Shown here piece by piece: positions 49,911 through 64,000 of a stretch of 64,000 nucleotides of DNA. A program made the translations under genes and the position numbers. The notes under the pieces were generated by a model, which ran no database searches, was not told where the DNA came from, and saw only the letters and a program-made list of their open reading frames with translations. The DNA is taken from contig OZ251518.1 in the NCBI GenBank assembly GCA_965242965.1, forward strand, positions 4,498,181 to 4,562,180, in the 5' to 3' direction. Numbering within the stretch: the first letter of the stretch is position 1; each line of letters begins with the position of its first letter. This DNA is from Candidatus Poribacteria bacterium. Its GTDB lineage: Bacteria > Poribacteria > WGA-4E > WGA-3G.

Positions 49911-50129
49911 CTCGTTGAGGTGAGTTGCCATTCGCGCTTAGAACCCGTTTTAACGCTGCAACGGCATGAATCTGCCCGTAGGAGAGACCTCCCGGTCTCG
50001 ATGTGGCGCGTATCGGGACAAGGATGTCCCTCCTACCGGAAGGCATCGGGCCCACATCTGTAGTTCGGGAGCACCTGCTCCCGAACGGGTCAGGATCAGG
50101 CGATCCTGACCTACAGAGGTGATGCGGTC

Positions 50130-50525
50130 TGCCAGCCAAACGCATGGCGAGGGACAGGCCCTCGCGCTACGGTTACGGACGGTTTTTCGACACGTATGAA
50201 ATTCGCGAGGGACAGGCCCCCGCGCTACGGTGTCCGAGGGGTTCGCGAGGGACAGGCCCTCGCGCTACGGTTGCGGCCGTTTTTGATACGTATAAAGTTC
50301 GCGAGGGACAGGCCCTCGCGCTACGGTTACAGCCGGTTTTTCGACACGTATGGAATTCGCGGGGGACAGGCCCCCGCGCTACGGTGCCCGAGGGGTTCGC
50401 GGGGGACAGGCCCCCGTGCTACGGTACCCGAGGGGTTCGCGAGGGACAGGCCCTCGCGCTACGGTTACGGCCGGTTTTCGACCTGCATGAAAGTTCGCGG
50501 GGGACAGGCCCCCGCGCTACGGACG
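50130..50525. repeat. regular tandem array of family-A GC-rich hairpin repeat (GTTCGCGAGGGACAGGCCCTCGCGCTACGG), 10 copies alternating ~30-nt and ~11-nt linkers
   Basis: Direct inspection. The linkers are near-identical to each other (TTACGGNCGGTTTTTCGACACGTATGNAA and TGYCCGAGGGG). Confidence 0.8.
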
Positions 50526-50536
50526 AAAAAGGCGTA

Positions 50537-51622
50537 TTATATCTCCGGCACGCGCACTGCTACCTCTTTCCCGGCTTCGTGCGAACGGAAAATGCCATCC
50601 ATAATCACGTTCGTGAGCAGCACTCCCTCCGGCGGAATTGGCGAGGACCCGTCCATCTTGACTGCCTCACGGAAGGCAGACATCTGTGCTTCCCACACAT
50701 CTACCTCTGGGAAACCGGAGAAACGGATAGTCGTCATGCCTTCCGGTGGGTTCGGTTCCGCCGTGAGTCCTTCCGCCTCAGCCAACTTCTTGAGCTCATC
50801 GGTATACGCATCGGCATAGACAACGGGGCCATCCAACGAAATTCCCGCTTCCTTGCCGAGGCAGAAGTTGCCGCCAAGCGAGTCGTTGTGAATCGCCCAC
50901 GAGATCTTGAATACCATCACGCCGCCGTTTTCAAACCGCACCCACGCCGCTCCGAATTCCTCAACATCCATCACGCCGCGCCACCTCGGGTCTTGCTGCG
51001 AAATGTGGTTTTCCGTGATGGCGGAGACGCGCACCGGCTTCGGATACCCCATCGCATACAGCGAGTTGTGCATGTTGTAAACGCCGATGTCCACCGTCGC
51101 GCCCGCGCCCGCTGTCTTCTTATAGATGAAGGTGTGTCCCGGATTGCCGCGCCGCCTGCATCCCGCAGATTCAGAATAGTAGATATCGCCGAGTAACCCG
51201 GCATCGACTACCTTCTTCGCGAATTGGAGGCGCGGGCTAAACGTGCTGTGAATGCCGATCTGCAAGATTTTGCCGGAGGCTTTCGCTGCGCGCACCATTG
51301 CAGTGGCATCCGCCAACTTCGCCGCCATCGGTTTCTCGCAGAACACATGCTTGCCCGCGTTCAACGCCGCCACCGTCGGCCGGCGATGTCCCTGATTATA
51401 CGTGCAAACGCTCACCGTATCAATGCCGTCCATCTCCAGCATCTTGTTGTAGCTGGTGAAGACGTGCTTTTTTGGAACGCCCCATTCCTCGGCGGCTTGC
51501 TGCGCCTTACTCTTGACAATATCACACACTGCGACGATTTCAAAACCGCCGGCTTTTTCGTAGGCTCTCTGGTGCGCACGTGAAATGCCACCCGTGCCAA
51601 CGATACCTACTCGGATAGTCAT
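50537..51622 (-). CDS. Gfo/Idh/MocA family oxidoreductase (second paralog)
   Basis: ATG at 51622 with AAGGAG RBS. MTIRVGIVGTGGIS Rossmann N-terminus. The track's extension to 51898 runs through repeats. Confidence 0.7.
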   Translation of the reverse strand: MTIRVGIVGTGGISRAHQRAYEKAGGFEIVAVCDIVKSKAQQAAEEWGVPKKHVFTSYNKMLEMDGIDTVSVCTYNQGHRRPTVAALNAGKHVFCEKPMAAKLADATAMVRAAKASGKILQIGIHSTFSPRLQFAKKVVDAGLLGDIYYSESAGCRRRGNPGHTFIYKKTAGAGATVDIGVYNMHNSLYAMGYPKPVRVSAITENHISQQDPRWRGVMDVEEFGAAWVRFENGGVMVFKISWAIHNDSLGGNFCLGKEAGISLDGPVVYADAYTDELKKLAEAEGLTAEPNPPEGMTTIRFSGFPEVDVWEAQMSAFREAVKMDGSSPIPPEGVLLTNVIMDGIFRSHEAGKEVAVRVPEI

Positions 51623-52055
51623 GGTGTCATCTCCTTTTTTCATTGATGCAAAATCTTCTTGTCTTCCCGTAGGAGGGACATCCTTGTCCCGATTTCCCGT
51701 AGGAGGGACATCCTTGTCCCGATGATGAATTCCCGTAGGAGGATTTTCCTTTGTTCGAGACCAGGAGGTCTCTCCTACGGTTGTTGCCTTGATACACCGT
51801 AGCGCGGGGGCCTGTCCCCCGCGATCGCTCGACCCGCGCGAAAAACGCACGCAGACTAAGGCCGTTTTCCGTTCCGAGCGGGTTTCCCCCGCGATCACCG
51901 AAGGGCTCTCCTACTGAGGATAATCGAGACCAGGAGGTCTCTCCTACTGCAGATAACTGAATACACATTTTAAACGCGATTCGGTTTGCAATGCAAGCGA
52001 AAAATGTGATATACTGATTATAGAAACGCAGTCCAAAAGTAAATAGGAGGAAAAC

Positions 52056-52700
52056 ATGGATACGCAAACCGGTTTCACGCGCGGGATTAACACCCGGTGG
52101 GTTAGTAATCCAGAAGGCTTCGTCTTCGGCGAACGTTATCGCGAGTTGCAAAAGGCGTGTGAAAAATGTTGTGGGTGGCATCTGTTATTGCCGCTCGGCA
52201 CTGCTGAGAAATACTACCTGCGCGGCATCAGCATTCCGAATGCGGATGCATCGTGCGATGCGGCGCAGACGGTGATAAACCTCGCGAAGTTACTCGTCGA
52301 TTCGTTAAATGACGATGCCCTGAAACGGTTAATTCCGCGCCAAAAGCGCGAGGAACTCAACGGGCTTTGGGGCATTGCGCTGCTTGAATTTGCCCTGTCT
52401 TTCAATGCGATTCAGGGGGCAGATGTTCATATCGCGTTTCTGCGGAAACTTCAGTGCCTCCGCGCCGATGGGAACGTGTGCAAATATCCGCTGGTAGAAA
52501 TTATTGACGGTGCCACGGATGTTCTGGATTACTTCATCGCGCTTTTAGAGAATGGCCGCATTGAGGCGATTGTCAAGCGAAATGCTAGAGATACCGTGAA
52601 CGCGCTCTTTGCGGAAATTCGGGCAGGCTATACCGCGGGTAAACCCGATGCTTCTGTCAATCATGACGAAGTGATTTATGAGTTGAAGGCGAAACCATGA
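52056..52700 (+). CDS. hypothetical protein, translationally coupled upstream partner of PIN toxin
   Basis: 214 aa with AGGAGG RBS. Its stop overlaps the PIN gene start (ATGA). No recognisable domain. Confidence 0.35.
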   Translation: MDTQTGFTRGINTRWVSNPEGFVFGERYRELQKACEKCCGWHLLLPLGTAEKYYLRGISIPNADASCDAAQTVINLAKLLVDSLNDDALKRLIPRQKREELNGLWGIALLEFALSFNAIQGADVHIAFLRKLQCLRADGNVCKYPLVEIIDGATDVLDYFIALLENGRIEAIVKRNARDTVNALFAEIRAGYTAGKPDASVNHDEVIYELKAKP

Positions 52701-53113
52701 TTTTTGTTGATTCTGGGGCATGGATTGCGGTGCTGAATCCGAAAGACCGGCACCATGAAGAGGCGAACGCAACTTTCGCCGGCTTGCATCGGAACATTAC
52801 ACTCGTAACGACCGATTATGTGATTGACGAAACCGCGACTCGTCTCCGATATGACACCAACCACGCGCTTGCTGTCAAGTTCTTGGATGCTATTGAAGAG
52901 TTTGAGATGTCCGGGGATTTAACGGTTATAGCAATCACTGCCGAAGTGTTTCAGGAAGCAAAAGCCCTTTTCCGGCAACGCAATTCTCCGCGGCTCCGGC
53001 TCTCATTTACGGATTGCACCAGTTTTGTGGTGTGCTGGTCGGATGTCCGCATCACGAAGGCTTTTGCTTTTGACGAGGACTTCCCGAAGATGGGGATTCC
53101 TTTGCAGCGGTGA
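52697..53113 (+). CDS. PIN-domain ribonuclease (VapC-like toxin)
   Basis: 138 aa. N-terminal acidic motif (MIFVDSGAWIA) and second motif (TTDYVIDE) match PIN catalytic acidic residues. Confidence 0.65.
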   Translation: MIFVDSGAWIAVLNPKDRHHEEANATFAGLHRNITLVTTDYVIDETATRLRYDTNHALAVKFLDAIEEFEMSGDLTVIAITAEVFQEAKALFRQRNSPRLRLSFTDCTSFVVCWSDVRITKAFAFDEDFPKMGIPLQR

Positions 53114-53187: not shown

Positions 53188-54378
53188 TTAAATTTCTCGG
53201 CCGTCGTCTGGGACAATCACGCTTTTTTCTAGTTTCTCAACATACTCTTGGTTAATGATACCTTCGCCGGCCTGGAGAAACAGATTATCGTGAAAAGCAG
53301 CATTGAGCACGTTGCCGCATTGTTTGTGGATGTTGCCAGTGGTGCGTAACTCTAAACCCTCCAGAAGCACGCGCAGTGCCTCTTCCTCGAAGGGATAAGT
53401 TTGCGGAAGTGTCTCCAATCGCGGCGTTTGGAGACGGTACTTGCGATGGTTGAGGCGTTCTGTAACATAGTGAATCGCTTCATCAACCGTCAACCCTTGG
53501 AAATAGACGACATCGGTAATACGCTCTGGCAAGCCGCGCCCTAAAACGAGCGTAATAACGTTGCGGTACACTCTAGAGCAGACGAGATCTGTCCGCAGAA
53601 ACACCGTGAAGAAATGCGGAAGCCGATCGATTAGGTCCCGGATTCCTTGTGTTAGTTCGCGAAACGGTACCCGATCTACACAGAGCAGATTCTCCAGTTC
53701 GTCAATCCAGAGGCAAACACGCGCGTGCCGGTGAATGTCAAGGCTCGGGTCTAAACCGATAAGGCACTGTATCACCCCCGCCAGCACTCGGAACCGATCT
53801 TGCCTTTTGATGTTCCGGGCGATGCCGAGTTCCCGCAATTCGGTGCGGGAACTACCCTCTAGGAAATAGTTACGCAATAAAGTTGGCTTCGCGTCTGATT
53901 CCTCTGTCCCCAGTAACCAAAAAGCACGCGCGAGTTCTTCACCGCCAAGCACTTTGTGAAGAGTTGCCCACGCTTCTGCCTTGGGTAACTCACCGATGGC
54001 ATCGCGGACAATTTCCCGAACGCGCGTCATGCCGAGCGTATCAAGGAAATCCGTGTAAAAATCATTGACAGCGTCCTCAATCTGCATCGGAACGCGCAGA
54101 TGGATGGCACGAAACCGTTCGCCCTCGCTAAAAAATGGCGGTAAGGCACCTTGATACTTAAAGCGGGACGAGGCATAAGCCTGCCCCTCAGCACGGGGCG
54201 CACGGAAAAGAACAACCTGCGGATGAGAGGACAAGGTTGCTTCCCGCAAGATTTTGGAAAACTGCCGATCCAATTTCTCCATGCCTTCACAGGTGACGTG
54301 TTTGGCACCCGGTAGCACGGTAAAGTCAAAGGGGTTCGCTTTTAGAAAAGCCAAACTCCAGTCCCATTTCTGAAACAT
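53188..54378 (-). CDS. hypothetical protein, possible AAA+/ORC-like NTPase with degenerate P-loop
   Basis: ATG at 54378 with AAGGAG RBS; the track's 54477 start is an extension. Walker-B-like motif (RVCLWIDELENLL) and Cdc6/ORC-like post-sensor-1 block (ITDVVYFQGLTVDEAIHYVTERL). No canonical GxxxxGK[ST]. Confidence 0.3.
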   Translation of the reverse strand: MFQKWDWSLAFLKANPFDFTVLPGAKHVTCEGMEKLDRQFSKILREATLSSHPQVVLFRAPRAEGQAYASSRFKYQGALPPFFSEGERFRAIHLRVPMQIEDAVNDFYTDFLDTLGMTRVREIVRDAIGELPKAEAWATLHKVLGGEELARAFWLLGTEESDAKPTLLRNYFLEGSSRTELRELGIARNIKRQDRFRVLAGVIQCLIGLDPSLDIHRHARVCLWIDELENLLCVDRVPFRELTQGIRDLIDRLPHFFTVFLRTDLVCSRVYRNVITLVLGRGLPERITDVVYFQGLTVDEAIHYVTERLNHRKYRLQTPRLETLPQTYPFEEEALRVLLEGLELRTTGNIHKQCGNVLNAAFHDNLFLQAGEGIINQEYVEKLEKSVIVPDDGREI

Positions 54379-54648
54379 TGTCAATCTCCTTTTTTGCTTG
54401 CAATGAGTGCGGCAATGAGGAGCATGTCTCCGCAACTGCCGCCGATTTATCGTTTTCAACTTTATATATATTAACACATCTGATTAGCGGATGTCAACTG
54501 AATTCCGAAAATTTTAAAATTTGGCATTTTTCGCGAAATATGCTATTATATACTTAGAATCCGAAATCACAGTCTTTTGAAACAAATTTTCTGCTCAAGT
54601 CGTTATATCTAATTTAGGGGACTTTCCTTAGAAAGGGACATTTAACTC
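54379..54648. promoter_or_regulatory. AT-rich divergent intergenic region between the 396-aa gene and dndC
   Basis: 270 bp at about 30% GC with TATTATAT-like -10 candidates on both strands. Confidence 0.35.
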
Positions 54649-56055
54649 ATGGGAACCGAGACATCCTACAGCATCTTCAATACGCGCACGCTTGCCCAGG
54701 TCTATCGCGAAATTCAAGAGGTCTATCTTGAAAACGCGCGCCCCTGGGTCATCGGGTACAGCGGTGGAAAAGACTCAACGACAGCACTCCAACTCGTTTG
54801 GTATGCTCTCGCGGAACTGCCGGCCGAAGAACGGAAGTATCCGGTTTACGTGATTTCATCCGACACCCTCGTTGAAACGCCGGTGATCGTTAGTTATATC
54901 ACCGGCACGCTGGCGCGAATCGAAGCGCATGCGAGCGAACAACAGATGCCCTTTCACACCGAACTCGTTCGGCCGAAGACGGAGGATACCTTCTGGGTTA
55001 ACCTCATCGGGAAGGGCTACCCGGCACCCTACTCACGCTTCCGATGGTGCACCGACCGGCTCAAAATACAGCCGGCGAATCGGTTCATCATAGAAAAAGC
55101 CTCGGAATACGGCGAGGTTATCCTCGTGCTCGGTTCACGGAAAGGGGAGAGTGCCACCCGCGATCAGGTGTTGAGTCTGCATCGTCTCAAAGATTCGTTG
55201 CTGTCACGGCATACCACACTGCCGAACGCTTACGTCTATACGCCCATCGTCGATTTCGGGTTGAACGATGTTTGGATGTATCTGCTCAGCAATCCGCCGC
55301 CGTGGGGAGGGGATAACAAGCAGCTCGTCACGCTTTATCGAAACGCCAACGCGCAAGGCGAATGCCCACTCGTCGTTGACGAGACTACGCCTTCCTGCGG
55401 AAATAGCCGATTCGGATGTTGGACCTGCACGGTTGTCTCCAAAGACCGGTCCATGGAAGGCCTCATTGACAACGGCGAAGAGTGGATGTTGCCGCTGCTA
55501 GAATTTCGAGACTTCCTCGCCGAAACACAAGACCCCGAGCGGAAGGCGGATATTCGGGAACATAGACGGCGGAATGGGAAAATCACGTTCGTGGGAGAGA
55601 AACTGATTCGCGGCCCCTATACGCTGGAATTCTGCAAGAAGTTGTTGAGGCGACTCCTTAAAACCCAGCAGCAGGTCCGCGAAGAGGGGCCAGACCAGAA
55701 CCTCCAACTCATCACGGATGCTGAATTGGAAGAGATTCGCAACATCTGGCGAACCGAACGTTCGGATTGGGAAGATGCGGTGCCGCAGATTTACAAAGAA
55801 GTTGTCGGTGAGCGCGAGTGGATTGTTGACGATACAACATCCTTCACCGCGGCGGATAAGCAACTCCTGGCCGCAGTCTGCGATGAAACCGGCGTTCCCG
55901 TTGAACTCGTCGCGAAATTATTGGATACCGAGCAGCAGATGGATGGCATGCTGCGGCGTGCGGGGATTCATTCCCGCATTGATGCAATTTTTCATGAAGA
56001 CTGGCACTCGGAAGCTGAGGCACGCGCCGAATTAGACGCGCGTGATGGACAATGA
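54649..56055 (+). CDS. dndC: DNA phosphorothioation protein DndC (PAPS-reductase-like ATP pyrophosphatase, Fe-S)
   Basis: 468 aa. PP-loop motif (SGGKDST) and a C-terminal Cys cluster (CPLVVDETTPSCGNSRFGCWTCT). Followed in order by dndD and dndE. Confidence 0.8.
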   Translation: MGTETSYSIFNTRTLAQVYREIQEVYLENARPWVIGYSGGKDSTTALQLVWYALAELPAEERKYPVYVISSDTLVETPVIVSYITGTLARIEAHASEQQMPFHTELVRPKTEDTFWVNLIGKGYPAPYSRFRWCTDRLKIQPANRFIIEKASEYGEVILVLGSRKGESATRDQVLSLHRLKDSLLSRHTTLPNAYVYTPIVDFGLNDVWMYLLSNPPPWGGDNKQLVTLYRNANAQGECPLVVDETTPSCGNSRFGCWTCTVVSKDRSMEGLIDNGEEWMLPLLEFRDFLAETQDPERKADIREHRRRNGKITFVGEKLIRGPYTLEFCKKLLRRLLKTQQQVREEGPDQNLQLITDAELEEIRNIWRTERSDWEDAVPQIYKEVVGEREWIVDDTTSFTAADKQLLAAVCDETGVPVELVAKLLDTEQQMDGMLRRAGIHSRIDAIFHEDWHSEAEARAELDARDGQ

Positions 56056-58064
56056 TTATCCATAAACTTTCCCTCAACAACTTCGGCTTGTTTCGCGGGC
56101 GGCAGACCCTTCCGTTGACACCAAACGGCACCGGGCCTGTTATCCTCATCGGTGGCATGAATGGTGCTGGTAAAACGACGCTGTTAGAAGCAGTGCGCCT
56201 CTGTTTATATGGGCGGCGGGCCCTCGGGAACCGGGTAGGGCAAAGTGAATATCACGACTACCTCTTCAACATGATTCATCGGAACCCACATTCGGTGGTG
56301 CCGTTGAACCACGCCGCTGTGTCGCTTGAATTTGAGTATACCCGCGGTGGCGAGAAAAAACGATATCGGGTTGAACGCTCTTGGGAGCATCACGGTGGAA
56401 AACACCCTACGGTTCGGGAAGGCTTGACTTTCCATGAAAATGACTGGCCAAGTCCCGAAATTGACGAAGGACATTGGCAGGATTACATCAACGAACTCAT
56501 CCCAATCGGCGTGTCTCAATTCTTCTTTTTCGATGGAGAGGACATCCAGAAATTAGCGGATGATTCCACCCACAATGGCTCTCTCGCCGAGTCCATTAAA
56601 GCGTTGCTCGGGCTCAATCTCGTTGAGCGGCTGCAATCGGATCTGCGTATCTACTCAAATCGCCTCGTTAAACAAGCGAGTCCCGAACCGGTGCAGGAAG
56701 AAATCGATGCAGCGGAATCAGAGGTTGCTGTCCTTACCGCAGAGCTCGCGAAGGCAAACGCGAAAAAAGATTCTCTCCAGGTCCGCATTGGAAAGTTATC
56801 TGGGGAAATAGCGCAACAAGAAGCACGGATTGCCGCTGAAGGCGGCGGCTATGCCAAAAAACGCGACATACTGAAACTTCAGCAGCAGCAGTGCCAGACA
56901 GAGGTTGAGAAGGCAGAGGACGATATTCGCGAGATGTGCAACGGTCTGTTTCCTTTCAGCCTCGCACCGAAACTTCTTAGGGACTTCAAGGAACAGCTCC
57001 TTAAAGAAATCGAATTAGATGAGTGGGAAGCGAAAAATCGCGCGCTAACTGAACAGAACACCGCGGTGCTTGAAACCCTTGAATCTGGTGATTTTTGGGA
57101 GGATGTCTCTCTATCGGGGGAACAAATCACGGATATTCGCGCCAAACTTGCGCCGCTGCTCCAGACACAATTTGAGCGTCCTGAATCGTTGCGCGGTTTC
57201 ACAAAACTCCGGGACCGGTCTCCATCGGAACGCCAGAAATTGTTAAAATGGATTGATGCTTGTCTCAATGAAATTCCTCAACAAGCGAGGAAATTGTTCA
57301 AAGCACTGAGAACGGCAAAATCGGAACTAGAAAAAGTAGAACAGGCTCTTCAGAGAGTGCCATCCGACGAACTCCTGAAACCGCTGATTGAGAAACTCTC
57401 GGCGTTAAATCAGACACTCGGCCAGTTGCAAAAACAGGAACAAGATGCGGACAAATCCGTCCGGTCTTTAATGCATCGACTTGCAGAGGCAGAACGAAAA
57501 TTGGAAAAGTTGTATCACGCTGAACAACGCGGGCGCGAACACCTCCAACGTCAACATCGCGTGAGCAACGTGCAATCGGTGCTTTCCACCTACACAACGC
57601 GACTCACCGAGACGAAGATTTTGGCATTAGGAAATGCGATAGTCAAGGGATTCAACCAGCTCTCTCACAAGCCGGATAGAATCAAACGGGTTGAGATACA
57701 CCCGCGAACGTTTGCGGTAACGCTCTACGATACCCGCAGTCAGCCCATCACCAAGGACGAATTATCGGCGGGTGAAAAGCAGATTTACACTACCGCGCTG
57801 TTATGGGGGTTGGCGAAAACCTCCGGCAAGGCACTGCCGATGATTCTTGACACGCCTTTGGGCCGTTTGGATAGTGATCATCGCCACCTGCTAATTGAGC
57901 AGTATTTTCCTTATGTCAGTCACCAAGTGGTGTTGCTCTCAACTGATACGGAAGTTGATGAGCACTTCTGCACGCTGTTGAAACCGCACACCTCGCATAC
58001 GTTTCATCTGGCGTATCAGCATGCGGAAGCTTGCACCACAGTTGAAAACGGCTATTTTGGGTAA
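56052..58064 (+). CDS. dndD: DNA phosphorothioation protein DndD (SMC/RecF-like ABC ATPase)
   Basis: 670 aa with a 4-nt ATGA overlap with dndC. N-terminal Walker A (GMNGAGKTT), FFFFDGEDI block, central coiled coil, C-terminal D-loop region (ILDTPLGRLDSDHR). Confidence 0.8.
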   Translation: MIIHKLSLNNFGLFRGRQTLPLTPNGTGPVILIGGMNGAGKTTLLEAVRLCLYGRRALGNRVGQSEYHDYLFNMIHRNPHSVVPLNHAAVSLEFEYTRGGEKKRYRVERSWEHHGGKHPTVREGLTFHENDWPSPEIDEGHWQDYINELIPIGVSQFFFFDGEDIQKLADDSTHNGSLAESIKALLGLNLVERLQSDLRIYSNRLVKQASPEPVQEEIDAAESEVAVLTAELAKANAKKDSLQVRIGKLSGEIAQQEARIAAEGGGYAKKRDILKLQQQQCQTEVEKAEDDIREMCNGLFPFSLAPKLLRDFKEQLLKEIELDEWEAKNRALTEQNTAVLETLESGDFWEDVSLSGEQITDIRAKLAPLLQTQFERPESLRGFTKLRDRSPSERQKLLKWIDACLNEIPQQARKLFKALRTAKSELEKVEQALQRVPSDELLKPLIEKLSALNQTLGQLQKQEQDADKSVRSLMHRLAEAERKLEKLYHAEQRGREHLQRQHRVSNVQSVLSTYTTRLTETKILALGNAIVKGFNQLSHKPDRIKRVEIHPRTFAVTLYDTRSQPITKDELSAGEKQIYTTALLWGLAKTSGKALPMILDTPLGRLDSDHRHLLIEQYFPYVSHQVVLLSTDTEVDEHFCTLLKPHTSHTFHLAYQHAEACTTVENGYFG

Positions 58065-58070
58065 GGCACA

Positions 58071-58436
58071 ATGCAATTAAACCGAATTCACATTTCCGAA
58101 GATTCACGTCATAAGTTGAGCGTTTTGAAGGCGCGCACTGGGTTGTTACCCAACGTCCTCTGCCGGCTTGGGTTAACGCTTTCCCTTGAGGAATCCAACG
58201 AGCCAACCCTTGATGCTGATGCGACGGATGGCTCAGAGTTTAACCGCTTTACCTTGATGGGGGAGTGGGATCCGTTGATTGTGGGACTCGTGGAGAGACG
58301 CTGTGCTTCCAACGGAAACGGCACAGACAACGGCGCGCTTGTTAAATACTTCCGCGCGCATCTGAACCGGGGGGTAGTTTTGCTTTACGGCCGCGTGAGA
58401 GGATTAGAAGACTTGACGAACCTTCTTCCAGAATAG
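58071..58436 (+). CDS. dndE: DNA phosphorothioation protein DndE
   Basis: 121 aa, starting 6 nt after the dndD stop. Size, position and N-terminus (IHISEDSRHKLSVLKARTG) fit DndE. Confidence 0.65.
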   Translation: MQLNRIHISEDSRHKLSVLKARTGLLPNVLCRLGLTLSLEESNEPTLDADATDGSEFNRFTLMGEWDPLIVGLVERRCASNGNGTDNGALVKYFRAHLNRGVVLLYGRVRGLEDLTNLLPE

Positions 58437-58516: not shown

Positions 58517-58999
58517 TTACCAAACATCCGAGATTAAACTTTTGTATGGATCCCAATTCAAAAGTAAATCCACCAAGTTTGTGATTCTGTCGCCAGGCAT
58601 ATCTTCAACCTGATTCTGAACCTCTATAATTCCACCGTTGGCGTATTCTTCCGCGATAGTTAGGATCTCCTCTTGATCTGTCAATATGTCAATGTCGCCA
58701 GTCACAGTGAGTGCTAATGCCCGAAGTAGTGGAACATCCGTATCGTGTGAAAATTGAGCCCAAGCGAAAATCATTTCTTTATCTTTTCCGAGCGGTACCC
58801 GCTTTTTCTCGTGGTAACCTATGAAGGCAGCGAGCATGAAAATATTTTTCATGGACTCAAACGGGGGTAAATCTTCCTGACCTGCGTTTTCTCTCGATTT
58901 CGTCAGGGCGACGTAGATTGAATGATGGGACTTGTCAATCCGGATGCGATCTCGAGCTCTGGATTGTGGATTTCTACGTTCCTCAGTGTTATCTAGCAT
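58517..58999 (-). CDS. hypothetical 160-aa protein, last gene of the nuclease-helicase/ATPase operon
   Basis: ATG at 58999 with AGGAGG RBS, 17 nt after the ATPase stop. No recognisable domain. Confidence 0.4.
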   Translation of the reverse strand: MLDNTEERRNPQSRARDRIRIDKSHHSIYVALTKSRENAGQEDLPPFESMKNIFMLAAFIGYHEKKRVPLGKDKEMIFAWAQFSHDTDVPLLRALALTVTGDIDILTDQEEILTIAEEYANGGIIEVQNQVEDMPGDRITNLVDLLLNWDPYKSLISDVW

Positions 59000-59016
59000 C
59001 GTATTATCCTCTCCTC

Positions 59017-60981
59017 CTAAATTTCTTCAATGGTGGTTGTCTTCGTCTGCGGATTGAATTTCAATTCATATTCTGCACCGATTCGAGGCTTAAGGTTTGC
59101 CTTTGCTTCTGGACGCAATTCCTCATCAGTCACGAATAGGACTAGCTGCTTGGCAATATCAGGAAGGATTACCGTTATGTTTTTCCTATGTTCGCTGGAA
59201 AGCCTGCCGAAAGGCGTATCCATTACAATCGGAAATGGTTCCTCCTTCAGTTGAGGGATCGTTTTCTGAACAGCTACCTTTGCCATTGCGGCGATGAAAG
59301 CGAGGCTGAGGACCTGACGTTGCCCCGCAGAAAGTTCAGGCAGTACGTCCGCGCCATTTTCGTCGATCACCTGAAGTTGGTAATTTTCGCTCAGACGAAC
59401 ATGGGCAAAATGATCGCCGTTCCACACCAAACGTTTGAAAATTTGCCCAACTTCCACTTGGACTTGCTCACGTATCTCTTTTGAGAATATAGCGTAAATC
59501 GTCTTCATCGCGGTCGACGCATCGCTGGCAAGTTTCCAAAATCTTTTTAGTTCTTCGGCTTTGGCGTTTGAATCCGTTTCAGTGCTGATTTGCTGCTCTT
59601 GCTTAGCTATGCCTTGGTTGATTTCCAGGATTCTCCCCTTAGTTTCGTTTATCACTTCTTCTAATTTGGGGATTTTCGCTTCATATTCCTTGCGCCGTTC
59701 TTCTAAGGCACGGGCTTCATCATGATCTAGATTTTCCAATTCGCGTCTAATGTTTTTTAAACGCGTTTCCTTCGCCTTTATATCTCGATCTAATTGTTCC
59801 GCCTTCCCCAAAACCAATTTTAAATTAGTTGGAAGGTTCCCTACTCGATCTTGCACTAAAAGGTTCAGATCATAAGTTTCCCGCGCGACATGTCCCAAGT
59901 CTGATGAAACAGATTGATTAAGAAGGTTACGGATAGTTTGAAACTCTGGGCTTCGATTGTCGATAGGTCTGCCACAGAGGCAACGCATCTCATTAAGAAG
60001 ATCGCTAAGAAGTCCTGCAGGAATTCCTCTCTGGACTTCCGCCAAAATTTCCAATGCCTCATCAATAGCAGGTTTTGCTAACGCGATAAAGCCTTGATTA
60101 GCCAAACTCCGAATTTTTTCTTGGATTTCCGCTTTTTGGTGCTGAAACTGCTCTAGTTCTGCCTCAATTGCTTTACGTTTGTTGACAAGCATGCGTAATC
60201 CCTTGATGTCTTCCAGACGTTCGTCAATCTCCCGCTTTTGCTGCTTGGCAAGTGTCAATTCTTCCTGAGAACTCGCTATAACATCTGACAATTTGTCACG
60301 GGATGCTTCTTTCGCTGCTTTTTCATTGAGCAAAGCCTTTAGTTTGCCTGAGGCATGCTTCCTCGCTTCCCGCTGGTACTCACCGGTAATGTCTTCTAAA
60401 TGTTTCATGCCGCGGGCAACCTCTTCAATTTTTAAGACATTGCGCACAGCACTCTCAACTTCCTTTTTGCGTTCTGGCCTCGTGAAGTTGTTAATCTTCT
60501 CGCCATCAAAAAAGAAGTGAACACTCACATCCTCAGGCATTATTGAACTAATCCAGGCTGATGCTTCGTCATCACTGAATTCGCGAAACTTGATTATTTC
60601 TAAGGAAAAGGGTGTTTCAATCCGCGGATACAGTGTTTCTCCTACCGATAAATGCCTATGAATTTTCCGTTTGGCACAGAATTCGACTTCCTGGTCAGGA
60701 AACATTCCTTGATAAGTAAAACGAAGTTCTACCGAGGTTACCACGTTTTCTCCCTCTGCAAGAGCACGCCTATTCACCAATTCGCCAATCTGTCCGATGT
60801 TTTTCTCAACAAATTTGTCGCCGTATAAACACCAGTTGATAGCAGTAAAGAGGGAGGTTTTCCCCGCGCCATTAACACCGTGAATAACCGTAACATGACG
60901 GTCGTCACTGGTAGCGAAATTAATGGTGTGTTCCCCATAGTACTGCCGAAAATTTTTCAATGTTATGCTGCTAAGCTTCAT
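59017..60981 (-). CDS. DndD-paralog SMC/RecF-like ATPase (AAA_23-type)
   Basis: ATG at 60981 (MKLSSITLKNF). Walker A (GVNGAGKTSL), HFFFDGEKI block matching the FFFFDGEDI of the adjacent true DndD, long coiled coil, C-terminal IVMDTPFGRLSSEHR matching DndD ILDTPLGRLDSDHR. Confidence 0.65.
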   Translation of the reverse strand: MKLSSITLKNFRQYYGEHTINFATSDDRHVTVIHGVNGAGKTSLFTAINWCLYGDKFVEKNIGQIGELVNRRALAEGENVVTSVELRFTYQGMFPDQEVEFCAKRKIHRHLSVGETLYPRIETPFSLEIIKFREFSDDEASAWISSIMPEDVSVHFFFDGEKINNFTRPERKKEVESAVRNVLKIEEVARGMKHLEDITGEYQREARKHASGKLKALLNEKAAKEASRDKLSDVIASSQEELTLAKQQKREIDERLEDIKGLRMLVNKRKAIEAELEQFQHQKAEIQEKIRSLANQGFIALAKPAIDEALEILAEVQRGIPAGLLSDLLNEMRCLCGRPIDNRSPEFQTIRNLLNQSVSSDLGHVARETYDLNLLVQDRVGNLPTNLKLVLGKAEQLDRDIKAKETRLKNIRRELENLDHDEARALEERRKEYEAKIPKLEEVINETKGRILEINQGIAKQEQQISTETDSNAKAEELKRFWKLASDASTAMKTIYAIFSKEIREQVQVEVGQIFKRLVWNGDHFAHVRLSENYQLQVIDENGADVLPELSAGQRQVLSLAFIAAMAKVAVQKTIPQLKEEPFPIVMDTPFGRLSSEHRKNITVILPDIAKQLVLFVTDEELRPEAKANLKPRIGAEYELKFNPQTKTTTIEEI

Positions 60982-61141
60982 GTGCTTTGACCTCTTCTTG
61001 AATAATTCGGCGGATTTCAAGTTTGATTCCTTGAGGCTTCCTCATGTCCAATTTTTGGAGCTCTGCCTCAAGAACCTTCTCAATTACATTCCTTACTTGG
61101 GGTGGTAGAGTCTGTTTGAACTCTTCTATTCCGTTTTTCAT
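60971..61141 (-). CDS. small 56-aa charged helical protein translationally coupled between helicase-nuclease and ATPase genes
   Basis: Not in the ORF track. ATG at 61141..61139 overlaps the TGA of the upstream gene (ATGA). Its stop overlaps the ATPase start by 11 nt. Sequence MKNGIEEFKQTLPPQVRNVIEKVLEAELQKLDMRKPQGIKLEIRRIIQEEVKAHEA. Confidence 0.35.
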   Translation of the reverse strand: MKNGIEEFKQTLPPQVRNVIEKVLEAELQKLDMRKPQGIKLEIRRIIQEEVKAHEA

Positions 61142-63204
61142 TCAGAGCCTCCCAGTACACCCAACAGATTGTACCCTTTAGCGACTTCCCAAATCCTACT
61201 ACGGGCATGAAACGGATTCAGGGCCATTCCGGCGAATTCGTTAAACCTCTTCAGTTCCCGTGCAACAATTTTACGCTCAGCGGCAAACGTTGCACTGGGA
61301 TACTGCCGGTACGCCTGAGGCGGAACCGCGACGAGGTCATGTATCTCAGCGTGTTCTTTACCGGGGGCTTTCCGGAGAATTCGCCCGCGTCGTTGGATAA
61401 ACTCCCTCGGATTGCTGCTGCTCGCGAGGATATAGGCGGTTTGCGTGCTCGGCACGTCAACCCCTTCATCTAGACACTTCATCGCTACTAGTGCCTGGAG
61501 GTGTCCCGATGCGAACATCTCCAACAATTCTCGCCGTTCAGTTGTGGATTCCTCTGCGGTAAATTTGGCAATGCGCAAGCCCAAATCGGTGAGCATCGGA
61601 AGTACTGAGTCAATTTGCCCAGGGGCACAGTAAAATAGCGCGTGATGAAGAGGCTCGTTTCTGTCCTCTAGCAGCTGCTCTAACACCTGCAACTTGTTTT
61701 CTGCTTTATTCAGCAGTGTTGCCCGTTTTATCAGTAACCTTTCAAGAGCCTCATTAGGCTCGTCGGTATTTGCGTGACGATACAGTCGCGCGATTCTATC
61801 GGTGAGGTTTTTGTACTCGTCAAGTTCCTCATCTGTCAATTCGACGAGATGGGGATAATAACAGTAGGGACAAAGACAACCTTCTTCGATCGCTTTGCGA
61901 AGAGAAAATTCGTAAACGGTTTCCCTAAAATATCTCTTGAGAGCAGCAGTCCCTTCATTGTCAAACCACCGGTTGGGCGTTGCCGACAAACCGAGCCGGT
62001 AATCGAAAACTTCCGGAAGTTTCTGTCGACTCTGAGTTGCTCCAAGATGATGAACTTCGTCGGCGACGAAAACGGCGGCACGTTTCAACTTGGAAAGCAG
62101 TTTCTGCATAGTGTCAGCGATGAAGGTGCTATGCGTCGTAATGGTACACACAACGTCGCAAACCTGCCAATTGTATCGCATCAAGGCAGTATTGAATTGA
62201 GGCACCCACCGCACAGAACTTTCATAAGCCACTATCGGTTCAAATCCGAATTGTTCGGCTTCCTTGCGCCACTGGTTAACAAGATGCTTGTACGGACAAG
62301 CGATGAGAACAAACAGCGTAGCCTTTTCCTCCTTGAGTTTGGCAAGGGCAGCCAAAGCTGTGATTGTCTTTCCTGTCCCTGTCGCCATTTCCCACAAGCC
62401 ACGGCAACCGTTTGCAAACCATGCATCAATTGCTTCCTGTTGGTATGCTCTCAGGACCAGACCTCTCGGCAAATAAGCCTCTTCGGGCTCAACTACTACC
62501 GGTGAATCTGGGGATGGCATTGTGTCGTAAACTAGTTGAGGACTTAAAAGCTCCTCTGCCAACGCTGTTGGAAAATCTACAACAGCCAACGTATCCGTTG
62601 CATTATTCCATAAACGCCTAAAATTGTCAACCTTTTGTTGAACGCGTTGCTGCGTATCCTCCGACGAGAGATAAACATCAATGGATTCAAAATTGCTCAG
62701 CAACCCACCGACAGTTTCATTTAGCGACCCGGCGAATGCCACAGCGTTGTCGGTATCGTCTAAAAATATACCGAGCTTTTCGTGGTAAATCGCCCGTGGG
62801 TTTATTTCGCTTGCATCCGCTGTGCAAGCAATTTTGATATCCAAATGCCTATGCGCGATGAGCCACGTTAGCAATGCCAACCGATCTCGCGCAATTGTCT
62901 GAAACTCGCTTTCAGAGAACCCTGCCAAAAATTGTGCATTTCTGGCCTCATAGCCGCGTTGGATTGCCTCAATATCATCCCTCGCTAAGCAGGGACCGGT
63001 TACCAGCCGCATTTTTCCGCTGCGCCGAATGAAGGTTGCTAGTCCTTTGGCATAGAGTGCGAGCCCACCACTGGTGAAATACCCAACAGCGCGCCAGTAC
63101 CGCGTGGCATGACGCAGGCACGGCGTGTAAAAATCCGCGACGAGGTCTGCACCATCCGAACGATATTCAGACCTGAGTGTAAGTTCTCTGAGTGACATAG
63201 ACAT
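61138..63204 (-). CDS. fusion protein: N-terminal PLD-family (HxK...GSxN) nuclease domain + SF2 DEAH helicase (type III Res-like)
   Basis: 688 aa. PLD motif (YHEKLGIFLDDTDNAVAFAGSLNET). Helicase motif I (ATGTGKT), II (DEVHH), III (SAT), VI (QRRGRILR). Confidence 0.7.
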   Translation of the reverse strand: MSMSLRELTLRSEYRSDGADLVADFYTPCLRHATRYWRAVGYFTSGGLALYAKGLATFIRRSGKMRLVTGPCLARDDIEAIQRGYEARNAQFLAGFSESEFQTIARDRLALLTWLIAHRHLDIKIACTADASEINPRAIYHEKLGIFLDDTDNAVAFAGSLNETVGGLLSNFESIDVYLSSEDTQQRVQQKVDNFRRLWNNATDTLAVVDFPTALAEELLSPQLVYDTMPSPDSPVVVEPEEAYLPRGLVLRAYQQEAIDAWFANGCRGLWEMATGTGKTITALAALAKLKEEKATLFVLIACPYKHLVNQWRKEAEQFGFEPIVAYESSVRWVPQFNTALMRYNWQVCDVVCTITTHSTFIADTMQKLLSKLKRAAVFVADEVHHLGATQSRQKLPEVFDYRLGLSATPNRWFDNEGTAALKRYFRETVYEFSLRKAIEEGCLCPYCYYPHLVELTDEELDEYKNLTDRIARLYRHANTDEPNEALERLLIKRATLLNKAENKLQVLEQLLEDRNEPLHHALFYCAPGQIDSVLPMLTDLGLRIAKFTAEESTTERRELLEMFASGHLQALVAMKCLDEGVDVPSTQTAYILASSSNPREFIQRRGRILRKAPGKEHAEIHDLVAVPPQAYRQYPSATFAAERKIVARELKRFNEFAGMALNPFHARSRIWEVAKGYNLLGVLGGSE

Positions 63205-63732: not shown

Positions 63733-64000
63733 TTATGATTTCCTCTGTCGATCTCGCCATTCAACAATCTGCCTCAAATCTTCGGCTAATTCCTGCTGAA
63801 TATCAGGCTTGTCTATCGCTTCCTCAACCCATTTCACCCCATTCTTGACCAGTTGGGTGACCGTCCGAATATATTGAGCCGAGCTCGGCGCGTCCAAGCG
63901 TTGCCCAAAGTTGGTGATTCGTTCGTAAACCGCAACCGTGTGCATGATTTGATACCGCTTGTCTTCCTCCCACTTGTCGTCCCGATTATACAGATACGTT
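63733..64000 (-). CDS. 3' end of an unidentified gene continuing beyond the window end
   Basis: The frame stays open upstream of the listed Met to the window edge (..TYLYNRDDKWEEDKRYQIMHTV..). No domain assignable. Confidence 0.3.
   Translation of the reverse strand, partial: TYLYNRDDKWEEDKRYQIMHTVAVYERITNFGQRLDAPSSAQYIRTVTQLVKNGVKWVEEAIDKPDIQQELAEDLRQIVEWRDRQRKS

Follow-up and report, generated by a model that had tools for sequence, protein, structure and literature searches.

We describe here a four-gene module in a 64,000-nt stretch of DNA (the window; all positions are as numbered there). The module consists of four open reading frames (ORFs) in a row on the minus strand, encoding proteins of 688, 56, 654 or 667, and 160 aa (ORF scan and reading of the sequence). 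On sequence grounds, and with a probability of roughly 0.9, we identify it as PbeABCD, also called the CxC-ABC-ATPase/DndE system, paired with a dndCDE cluster for phosphorothioate (PT) modification of DNA. There are several reasons for this identification: full-length matches to the PADLOC PbeA and PbeC models, the names of the NCBIfam families that match, a CxC motif in the large ATPase, the predicted fold of PbeD, the order of the genes, and their genomic context. The module is already known: it is an ordinary copy of an antiviral system published in 2019, not a new defence system. The first-pass annotation of this DNA had concluded that the genes were not placeable in any named defence system, and had listed full-length matches to a named system as a reason to abandon that conclusion; such matches were found for both PbeA and PbeC.

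Xiong et al. (2019, Nat Commun 10:1688, PMC6459918) first described PbeABCD and put it to experimental test. In that system, DndCDE and a cysteine desulfurase write PT marks on host DNA, and PbeABCD blocks the replication of invading DNA that is not PT-modified. With Haloterrigena jeotgali genes expressed in Natrinema, dndCDEA-pbeABCD lowers SNJ1 plaque formation ~10^4-fold; protection needs all four pbe genes, and PT-modified virus escapes (PMC6459918). A re-annotation by Rakesh et al. (2024, NAR 52:1005, PMC10853773) describes PbeA as an HKD nuclease fused to a superfamily 2 (SF2) helicase, PbeB as a fast-evolving small protein, PbeC as a “CxC” zinc-hook ATP-binding cassette (ABC) ATPase that is sister to DndD, and PbeD as a DndE cognate. 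The core of the system, in that account, is the recruited ATPase of the DndD sister clade together with its own DndE cognate. The first-pass annotation took the module for the restriction-side partner of the PT modification cluster, and this view stands; what it regarded as unusual, a DndD-like paralog on the restriction side, is the defining feature of the published system (PMC10853773).

The four genes are chained by short junctions. The pbeA and pbeB genes share an ATGA overlap, pbeB and pbeC overlap by 11 nt (ATGAAGCTTAG, with an ATG start at 60981), and pbeC and pbeD are separated by a 17-nt spacer, with a GGAGGAG Shine-Dalgarno sequence that begins on the final base of the pbeC stop codon. 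These junctions, and the convergence of the four genes with dndCDE, agree with the first-pass annotation. That annotation also assigned the 11-nt junction to a 667-aa ATPase, which mixes two starts: the 667-aa form begins at a TTG at 61020 and overlaps pbeB by 50 nt, whereas the 11-nt overlap belongs to the ATG at 60981 and a protein of 654 aa that begins MKLSS. Since every PADLOC profile starts aligning at residue 14 of the 667-aa form, the ATG is the likelier start. A scan of the operon for promoter and terminator consensus sequences found sites no more commonly than in shuffled sequence, so its putative status as an operon is based on the junctions and the conserved gene order.

The first gene, pbeA (61138-63204, minus strand), encodes a 688-aa protein in which a phospholipase D (PLD)-type HKD nuclease domain precedes an SF2 DExH helicase, a fusion recognized in the first-pass annotation. 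The PADLOC PbeA model matches it with an E-value of 4.6e-246 over residues 4-668, the profile having 672 positions. Pfam ResIII, DEAD and Helicase_C match over their cut-offs; PLDc_2 matches under its cut-off, at 19 bits. NCBIfam TIGR04095 (dnd_restrict_1, “DNA phosphorothioation system restriction enzyme”) matches residues 245-680 with 557.6 bits. The HKD active-site motif (62719-62784, minus strand; HEKLGIFLDDTDNAVAFAGSLN) spans residues 141-162, with H141-E-K143 followed by G159-S160-L-N162. Helicase motifs I-II (62050-62379, minus strand) comprise GTGKT at residues 276-280 and DEVH at residues 382-385, and further helicase motifs are SAT at 407 and QRRGR at 604. We compared these residues across 72 full-length PbeA homologues recovered from reference genomes, with ~30-70% identity. 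HKD residues H141, K143, G159, S160 and N162 are invariant in all 72, as are helicase residues G276, K279, T280, D382, E383, H385, S407 and T409, and the Q, G and final R of motif VI. The invariance of both sets of catalytic residues argues that the nuclease and helicase activities predicted for PbeA are both under selection.

The large ATPase is encoded by pbeC (59017-60981, minus strand; 654 aa from the ATG) and is assigned to the CxC clade of coiled-coil ABC ATPases, sister to DndD. The PADLOC PbeC model matches it with an E-value of 3.1e-130 and 433.7 bits over residues 14-666 in the 667-aa numbering; the best PADLOC DndD model gives an E-value of 1.3e-77 and 260.3 bits. Pfam AAA_23 matches as well. 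In the 654-aa form, the Walker A motif is at residues 35-42, the signature SAGQ at 551, and the Walker B/D-loop sequence DTPFGRL at 588. A putative zinc-hook motif, CxC (C334-L-C336; 59974-59982, minus strand), falls midway along the protein and contains its sole closely spaced cysteines. The segment that holds the CxC has proline and glycine; its flanks are free of proline and rich in E, K, R, Q, L and A at residues 170-303 and 439-547. We infer that the CxC sits at the apex of a coiled coil. Among related loci, a central CxC is present in 66 of the 69 ATPases encoded downstream of PbeA homologues; the window's own DndD has no CxC motif. The two ATPases are nonetheless paralogous, as the first-pass annotation had proposed from two shared blocks: FFFDGE occurs at residue 156 of PbeC and 158 of DndD, and DTP.GRL at 588 and 600, respectively. 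BLASTP aligns the two proteins with 27% identity over 174 aa (E-value of 2e-15) and 24% identity over 269 aa (E-value of 2e-14).

The last gene, pbeD (58517-58999, minus strand), encodes a 160-aa protein that matches NCBIfam TIGR04062 (dnd_assoc_4, “DNA phosphorothioation-associated protein 4”) with 65.2 bits. Comparison of PbeD with the DndE encoded in the window detected nothing by BLASTP and was marginal by hhalign (E-value of 0.013). Fold comparison settled what these searches left undecided: the best match to the predicted structure of PbeD is DndE, and the next is TraY. The model contains a double ribbon-helix-helix (RHH), a long H1a-H2a loop at residues 33-49, and C-terminal helices. 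Judged by its predicted structure, PbeD is a DndE cognate (“clade-2” DndE), a putative DNA-binding protein with two RHH units and a C-terminal helical extension. The order of the matches, DndE and then TraY, agrees with the prediction made in the 2024 reappraisal (PMC10853773).

The genes next to the module encode a canonical PT modification system on the plus strand. First, dndC (54649-56055) encodes a PT sulfurtransferase with the PAPS-reductase fold (PADLOC DndC E-value of 1e-202; TIGR03183, 569.8 bits, over the cut-off). Second, dndD (56052-58064) encodes a canonical DndD ABC ATPase (PADLOC DndD E-value of 1e-217; TIGR03185, 544.9 bits, over the cut-off). Third, dndE (58071-58436) encodes a canonical, or “clade-1”, DndE (Pfam DndE, 80.2 bits; TIGR03184, 83.5 bits; PADLOC DndE E-value of 7e-36). 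The pbe genes converge on dndCDE, and the stop codons of pbeD and dndE are separated by 80 bp. Both dndA and dndB are missing from the window. Several Poribacteria relatives carry a DndB-like gene of 577 aa (weak PF14072) next to dndE (L081-L084 1-1054; L012 15394-16458; labels of this form denote the loci of relatives).

The arrangement of the two gene sets is conserved. The closest relatives, with 50-70% identity, are in metagenome-assembled genomes (MAGs) of Candidatus Poribacteria, and others are in MAGs of Latescibacterota, Dehalococcoidia and Chloroflexi. The A-B-C-D order is common to all close relatives. Where close relatives have full flanks, pbeABCD is followed by convergent dndE-D-C in 20 of 21 loci; in the single exception, dndC is beyond the fetched flank. 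Among more distant loci with full flanks, dndC is within 10 kb in 29 of 36 and absent from that distance in seven. The left flank of the dnd genes (a CoA-transferase, a hydrolase, a UPF0020 methyltransferase and a GFO/IDH/MocA oxidoreductase) shares synteny with a Poribacteria contig, and the host is probably a sponge-associated member of Candidatus Poribacteria. The remaining large ORFs in the window are housekeeping genes. The G+C content is 44-49% across 58-64 kb, compared with ~55% for most of the window, and that of the four genes is lower than in the rest of the window by about 10 points, which bears out the low-GC island noticed at first pass; no tRNA was found near it.

It has been proposed that systems of this kind act by abortive infection (PMC10853773): a viral factor would remove or modify PbeB, a negative regulator, and so free PbeA to act on host DNA in a suicide response, and the linkage to dndCDE would be a “mix and match” co-location. 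Consistent with this proposal, 320 of 553 PbeAC homologues occur without dndCD (Xiong 2019, PMC6459918), the seven distant loci above have no dndC within 10 kb, and the small protein evolves fast. On the other hand, PT-modified virus escapes in the tested case, which implies that PT serves to discriminate self from non-self (PMC6459918); in addition, the pairing of pbe with dnd is near constant within the clade (20 of 21), and nothing in the window suggests a sensor of the trigger. We therefore regard suicide by PbeABCD as unlikely, and restriction guided by PT marks as the better account of this module.

Several observations weigh against assigning the module to PbeABCD. Two of the supporting NCBIfam scores are below their cut-offs: PbeA reaches 557.6 bits where TIGR04095 requires 600, and PbeD reaches 65.2 bits where TIGR04062 requires 74.25. 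Neither the PADLOC PbeB model nor Pfam Sp-CxC recognizes the 56-aa ORF. The window's true DndD (56052-58064, plus strand) scores 668 bits on a PADLOC model that is itself named PbeC (PDLC02756). Lastly, a crude motif search of the 64-kb window found no cysteine desulfurase, and we must assume that a sulphur donor (dndA/iscS) is encoded in another part of the genome. Because some PADLOC “PbeC” models also score true DndD highly, we tested each Pbe feature separately. The PADLOC name “PbeC” alone fails to separate the two ATPase clades; the CxC motif and the NCBIfam cut-off for DndD do separate them. Indeed, PbeC scores 220.9 bits on the TIGR03185 DndD equivalog, below the cut-off of 245.85, whereas the true DndD scores 544.9. 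PbeC can be rejected as a canonical DndD on both counts, since it falls under this cut-off and carries the CxC.

Another reading, that of the first-pass annotation, is that the module is a new, unnamed defence system that merely resembles Lamassu, Gabija or DISARM. In its favour, PADLOC finds no match for PbeB or PbeD, even at an E-value of 10, and a sequence search for solved structures of PbeA, PbeC and PbeD returned none beyond generic XPB and Rad50 matches. By contrast, PbeA and PbeC match named models over their full length, and the structural and contextual hallmarks of PbeABCD are present, with PbeB recognized by position and size. The likeness to Lamassu, Gabija and DISARM raised in the first-pass annotation is limited to generic similarity among ABC ATPases and among SF2 helicases. 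Lamassu was rejected because the best 25 of the 102 PADLOC matches of the ATPase are all PbeC or DndD, and because there is no LmuA-type effector, the partner being an HKD-helicase. DISARM was rejected because the DrmD match is local to the helicase core, scoring 19.5 bits with PADLOC and 18.2 bits with NCBIfam (cut-off 610). Gabija was rejected because there is no Gaj model among the matches listed; more broadly, no Lamassu or Gabija model is among the best 25 PADLOC matches of either large protein. An unnamed system is therefore very improbable, and we retain the assignment to PbeABCD.

DndFGH, SspE and SspFGH have the same role as PbeABCD, as restriction-side partners of PT modification, with unrelated gene content. 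DndFGH and Ssp were rejected as identities of the module, since no such model is among the PADLOC matches listed for any pbe protein; the first-pass annotation was right to set DndFGH and SspE apart by gene content. The SF2 translocase core of PbeA (ResIII) is like that of Type I and Type III restriction helicases, and its single HKD motif is like that of the HKD nucleases Nuc, BfiI and DISARM DrmC, implying a dimeric active site. Unlike these enzymes, PbeA is accompanied by no methyltransferase or specificity subunit, and its partner is a coiled-coil ABC ATPase.

The closest experimentally studied system is DndCDEA-PbeABCD of H. jeotgali A29. The type PbeA and PbeC are described by four Pfam families, PLDc_2, ResIII, Helicase_C and AAA_23 (PMC6459918), and the same four match here, in agreement with the type proteins. 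Several features are shared: (i) the order of the four genes, with a PbeA composed of PLD, ResIII and Helicase_C; (ii) a tiny ORF after pbeA (66 aa there, 56 aa here); (iii) an N-terminal AAA_23 in PbeC; (iv) a small PbeD (152 aa there, 160 aa here); and (v) a cassette that adjoins dndCDE, with no dndB. Other features differ, in that the host here is a bacterium, there is no linked dndA, the small protein is too diverged for the PADLOC PbeB model, and the placement is convergent rather than tandem, with the 80 bp between stop codons. We consider these differences minor.

Similarly, the module resembles the CxC ABC-ATPase/clade-2 DndE system as described in 2024 (PMC10853773). The CxC lies midway in a helical insert of ~370 residues, and the ATPase is accompanied by a double-RHH DndE cognate, an HKD and SF2 helicase protein and a small protein, adjoining a PT system anchored by DndD and DndE. 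Unlike in that description, a cytosine methylase or MTaX1 gene is missing here, and the small protein resembles the Sp-DndD/DndC-tail type rather than Pfam Sp-CxC. The adjacent DndD-DndE pair differs from PbeC-PbeD in the CxC and the DndD equivalog score, as described above, and the likeness between PbeD and DndE is marginal in sequence.

The small protein requires a closer look. The pbeB gene (60971-61141, minus strand) encodes 56 aa and occupies the slot between pbeA and pbeC. A small ORF fills this slot in nearly all loci that have a downstream ABC ATPase, and we assign the 56-aa ORF as the putative PbeB by position, size and conservation. The small protein of this slot evolves fast across related loci. 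A search for homologues of this PbeB returned only three near-identical proteins, and Sp-CxC matches four distant small proteins of the same slot (E-value of 1.8e-23).

A likeness links PbeB to the C-terminal tail of DndC. Residues 403-448 of DndC (55855-55992, plus strand) match Pfam Sp-DndD (PF20306) with 38.9 bits, over the cut-off, and the tail also matches the PADLOC PbeB model weakly (E-value of 5.7e-4); in the other direction, some PbeB homologues touch PADLOC DndC models. Comparison by hhalign of 18 PbeB-type small proteins with 46 DndC tails gave an E-value of 4.8e-5, compared with 0.2-0.6 for control pairs. In reciprocal hidden Markov model (HMM) searches of 20,145 ORFs, the PbeB and DndC-tail profiles were each other's best non-self matches, at the equivalent position, although the individual E-values, 0.05-3, are marginal. 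Both profiles also match one small ORF in L072 (12063-12269), with E-values of 0.003 and 4e-4. From these comparisons we suggest, tentatively and as a possibility we ourselves find doubtful, that PbeB is a free-standing homologue of the DndC tail, such that one short helical peptide, or “plug,” joins an enzyme to its cognate ABC-ATPase/DndE scanner. DndC may carry the plug as a fusion and dock with it onto DndD-DndE, and PbeA may use the separate PbeB to dock onto PbeC-PbeD. If true, the shared plug would be a testable handle on how Pbe effectors couple to DNA scanning, and it might account for the absolute requirement for pbeB.

Together, the four proteins suggest a mechanism. PbeC would dimerise through its CxC zinc hook and form, with the double-RHH PbeD, an ATP-driven DNA-scanning complex parallel to DndD-DndE. 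This complex would license PbeA on DNA that lacks PT at cognate sites. PbeA would then translocate by its SF2 motor and nick or cut the DNA. Because it has a single HKD motif, PbeA must pair with a second copy to form one catalytic center, as in Nuc and BfiI. PbeA and PbeC would be linked by PbeB, acting as a short helical adaptor or regulator; the pbeB gene overlaps both of theirs.

Whether the final step is nucleolytic is a closer question. The HKD residues are fully invariant, so nicking or cleavage is favored, and cleavage by the effector has been argued on the same grounds of HKD conservation (Rakesh 2024, PMC10853773). We lean modestly toward nucleolytic action over a block that involves no degradation at all. 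Against a nucleolytic step, viral DNA in the only experimental study was intact at 6 h, with no visible degradation, while its replication was suppressed (PMC6459918). PbeABCD could instead be non-cutting, with PbeC, PbeD and PbeA loading onto the unmodified invader and stopping its replication through translocation, looping or compaction; DNA binding or other phosphodiester chemistry would then be the role of the HKD domain. In line with a non-cutting block, a slight degree of protection persisted after pbeA was lost, while pbeB, pbeC and pbeD were absolutely required (PMC6459918), and a 2025 review still terms the restriction event “obscure” (PMC12707154). However, the HKD residues H, K, G, S and N do not vary in any of the 72 homologues, as expected of a working catalytic center, and nicks, or cuts in a minor share of the molecules, can escape a Southern blot. 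We consider the non-cutting block credible, if the less probable of the two, and nucleolytic action by PbeA remains our preferred account.

As a discovery, the module carries little weight, since PADLOC would call it automatically. It adds one more bacterial dnd-pbe pairing, within a clade that also spans Latescibacterota and Dehalococcoidia MAGs. Two points bear on the mechanism of Pbe systems: the invariant HKD and helicase residues in 72 homologues, and the likeness between PbeB and the DndC tail.

Divergent from dndC is orf429 (53188-54477, minus strand; probable start 54378). In other Poribacteria, a trio of genes, X-Y-Z, is divergent from dndCDE, and in a gammaproteobacterial MAG such a trio has sspD on one side and sspB/sspC/cysteine desulfurase on the other. 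The genes of the different trios are homologous one to one, and they have no match in PADLOC. The window has lost X and Y from this set and kept only Z, which is orf429. The P-loop of orf429 is destroyed (GxxGxGKTH to AxxAxGQAY); all 40 other sequences in the alignment of 41 retain the P-loop lysine. By its sequence, orf429 looks like a P-loop-dead remnant of a three-gene module linked to PT clusters. SspFGH was rejected as the identity of this trio, being set apart by domain content as described in the paper on that system.

Three further features lie near the two gene sets. First, at 52056-53113 (plus strand), a 214-aa ORF with no family match overlaps a 138-aa PIN-domain gene (PF01850) by 4 nt; the two look like a toxin-antitoxin-type pair, which is also found just past dndC in L010 and L012, with 43-60% identity. 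Second, a 70-aa ORF with no family match (63733-63945, minus strand) lies upstream of pbeA; its homologues, 49-60% identical, are present in at least 12 Poribacteria loci, where they lie between pbeD and dndE. Third, the region 49973-51966 has intergenic repeats on either side of the GFO/IDH/MocA oxidoreductase gene. These include a 125-nt unit in four copies (50147-50563) and repeats of 30 nt and 43 nt with a GAGACC...GGTCTC palindrome, and they yield spurious long ORFs with repeated “GQAPALR” peptides.

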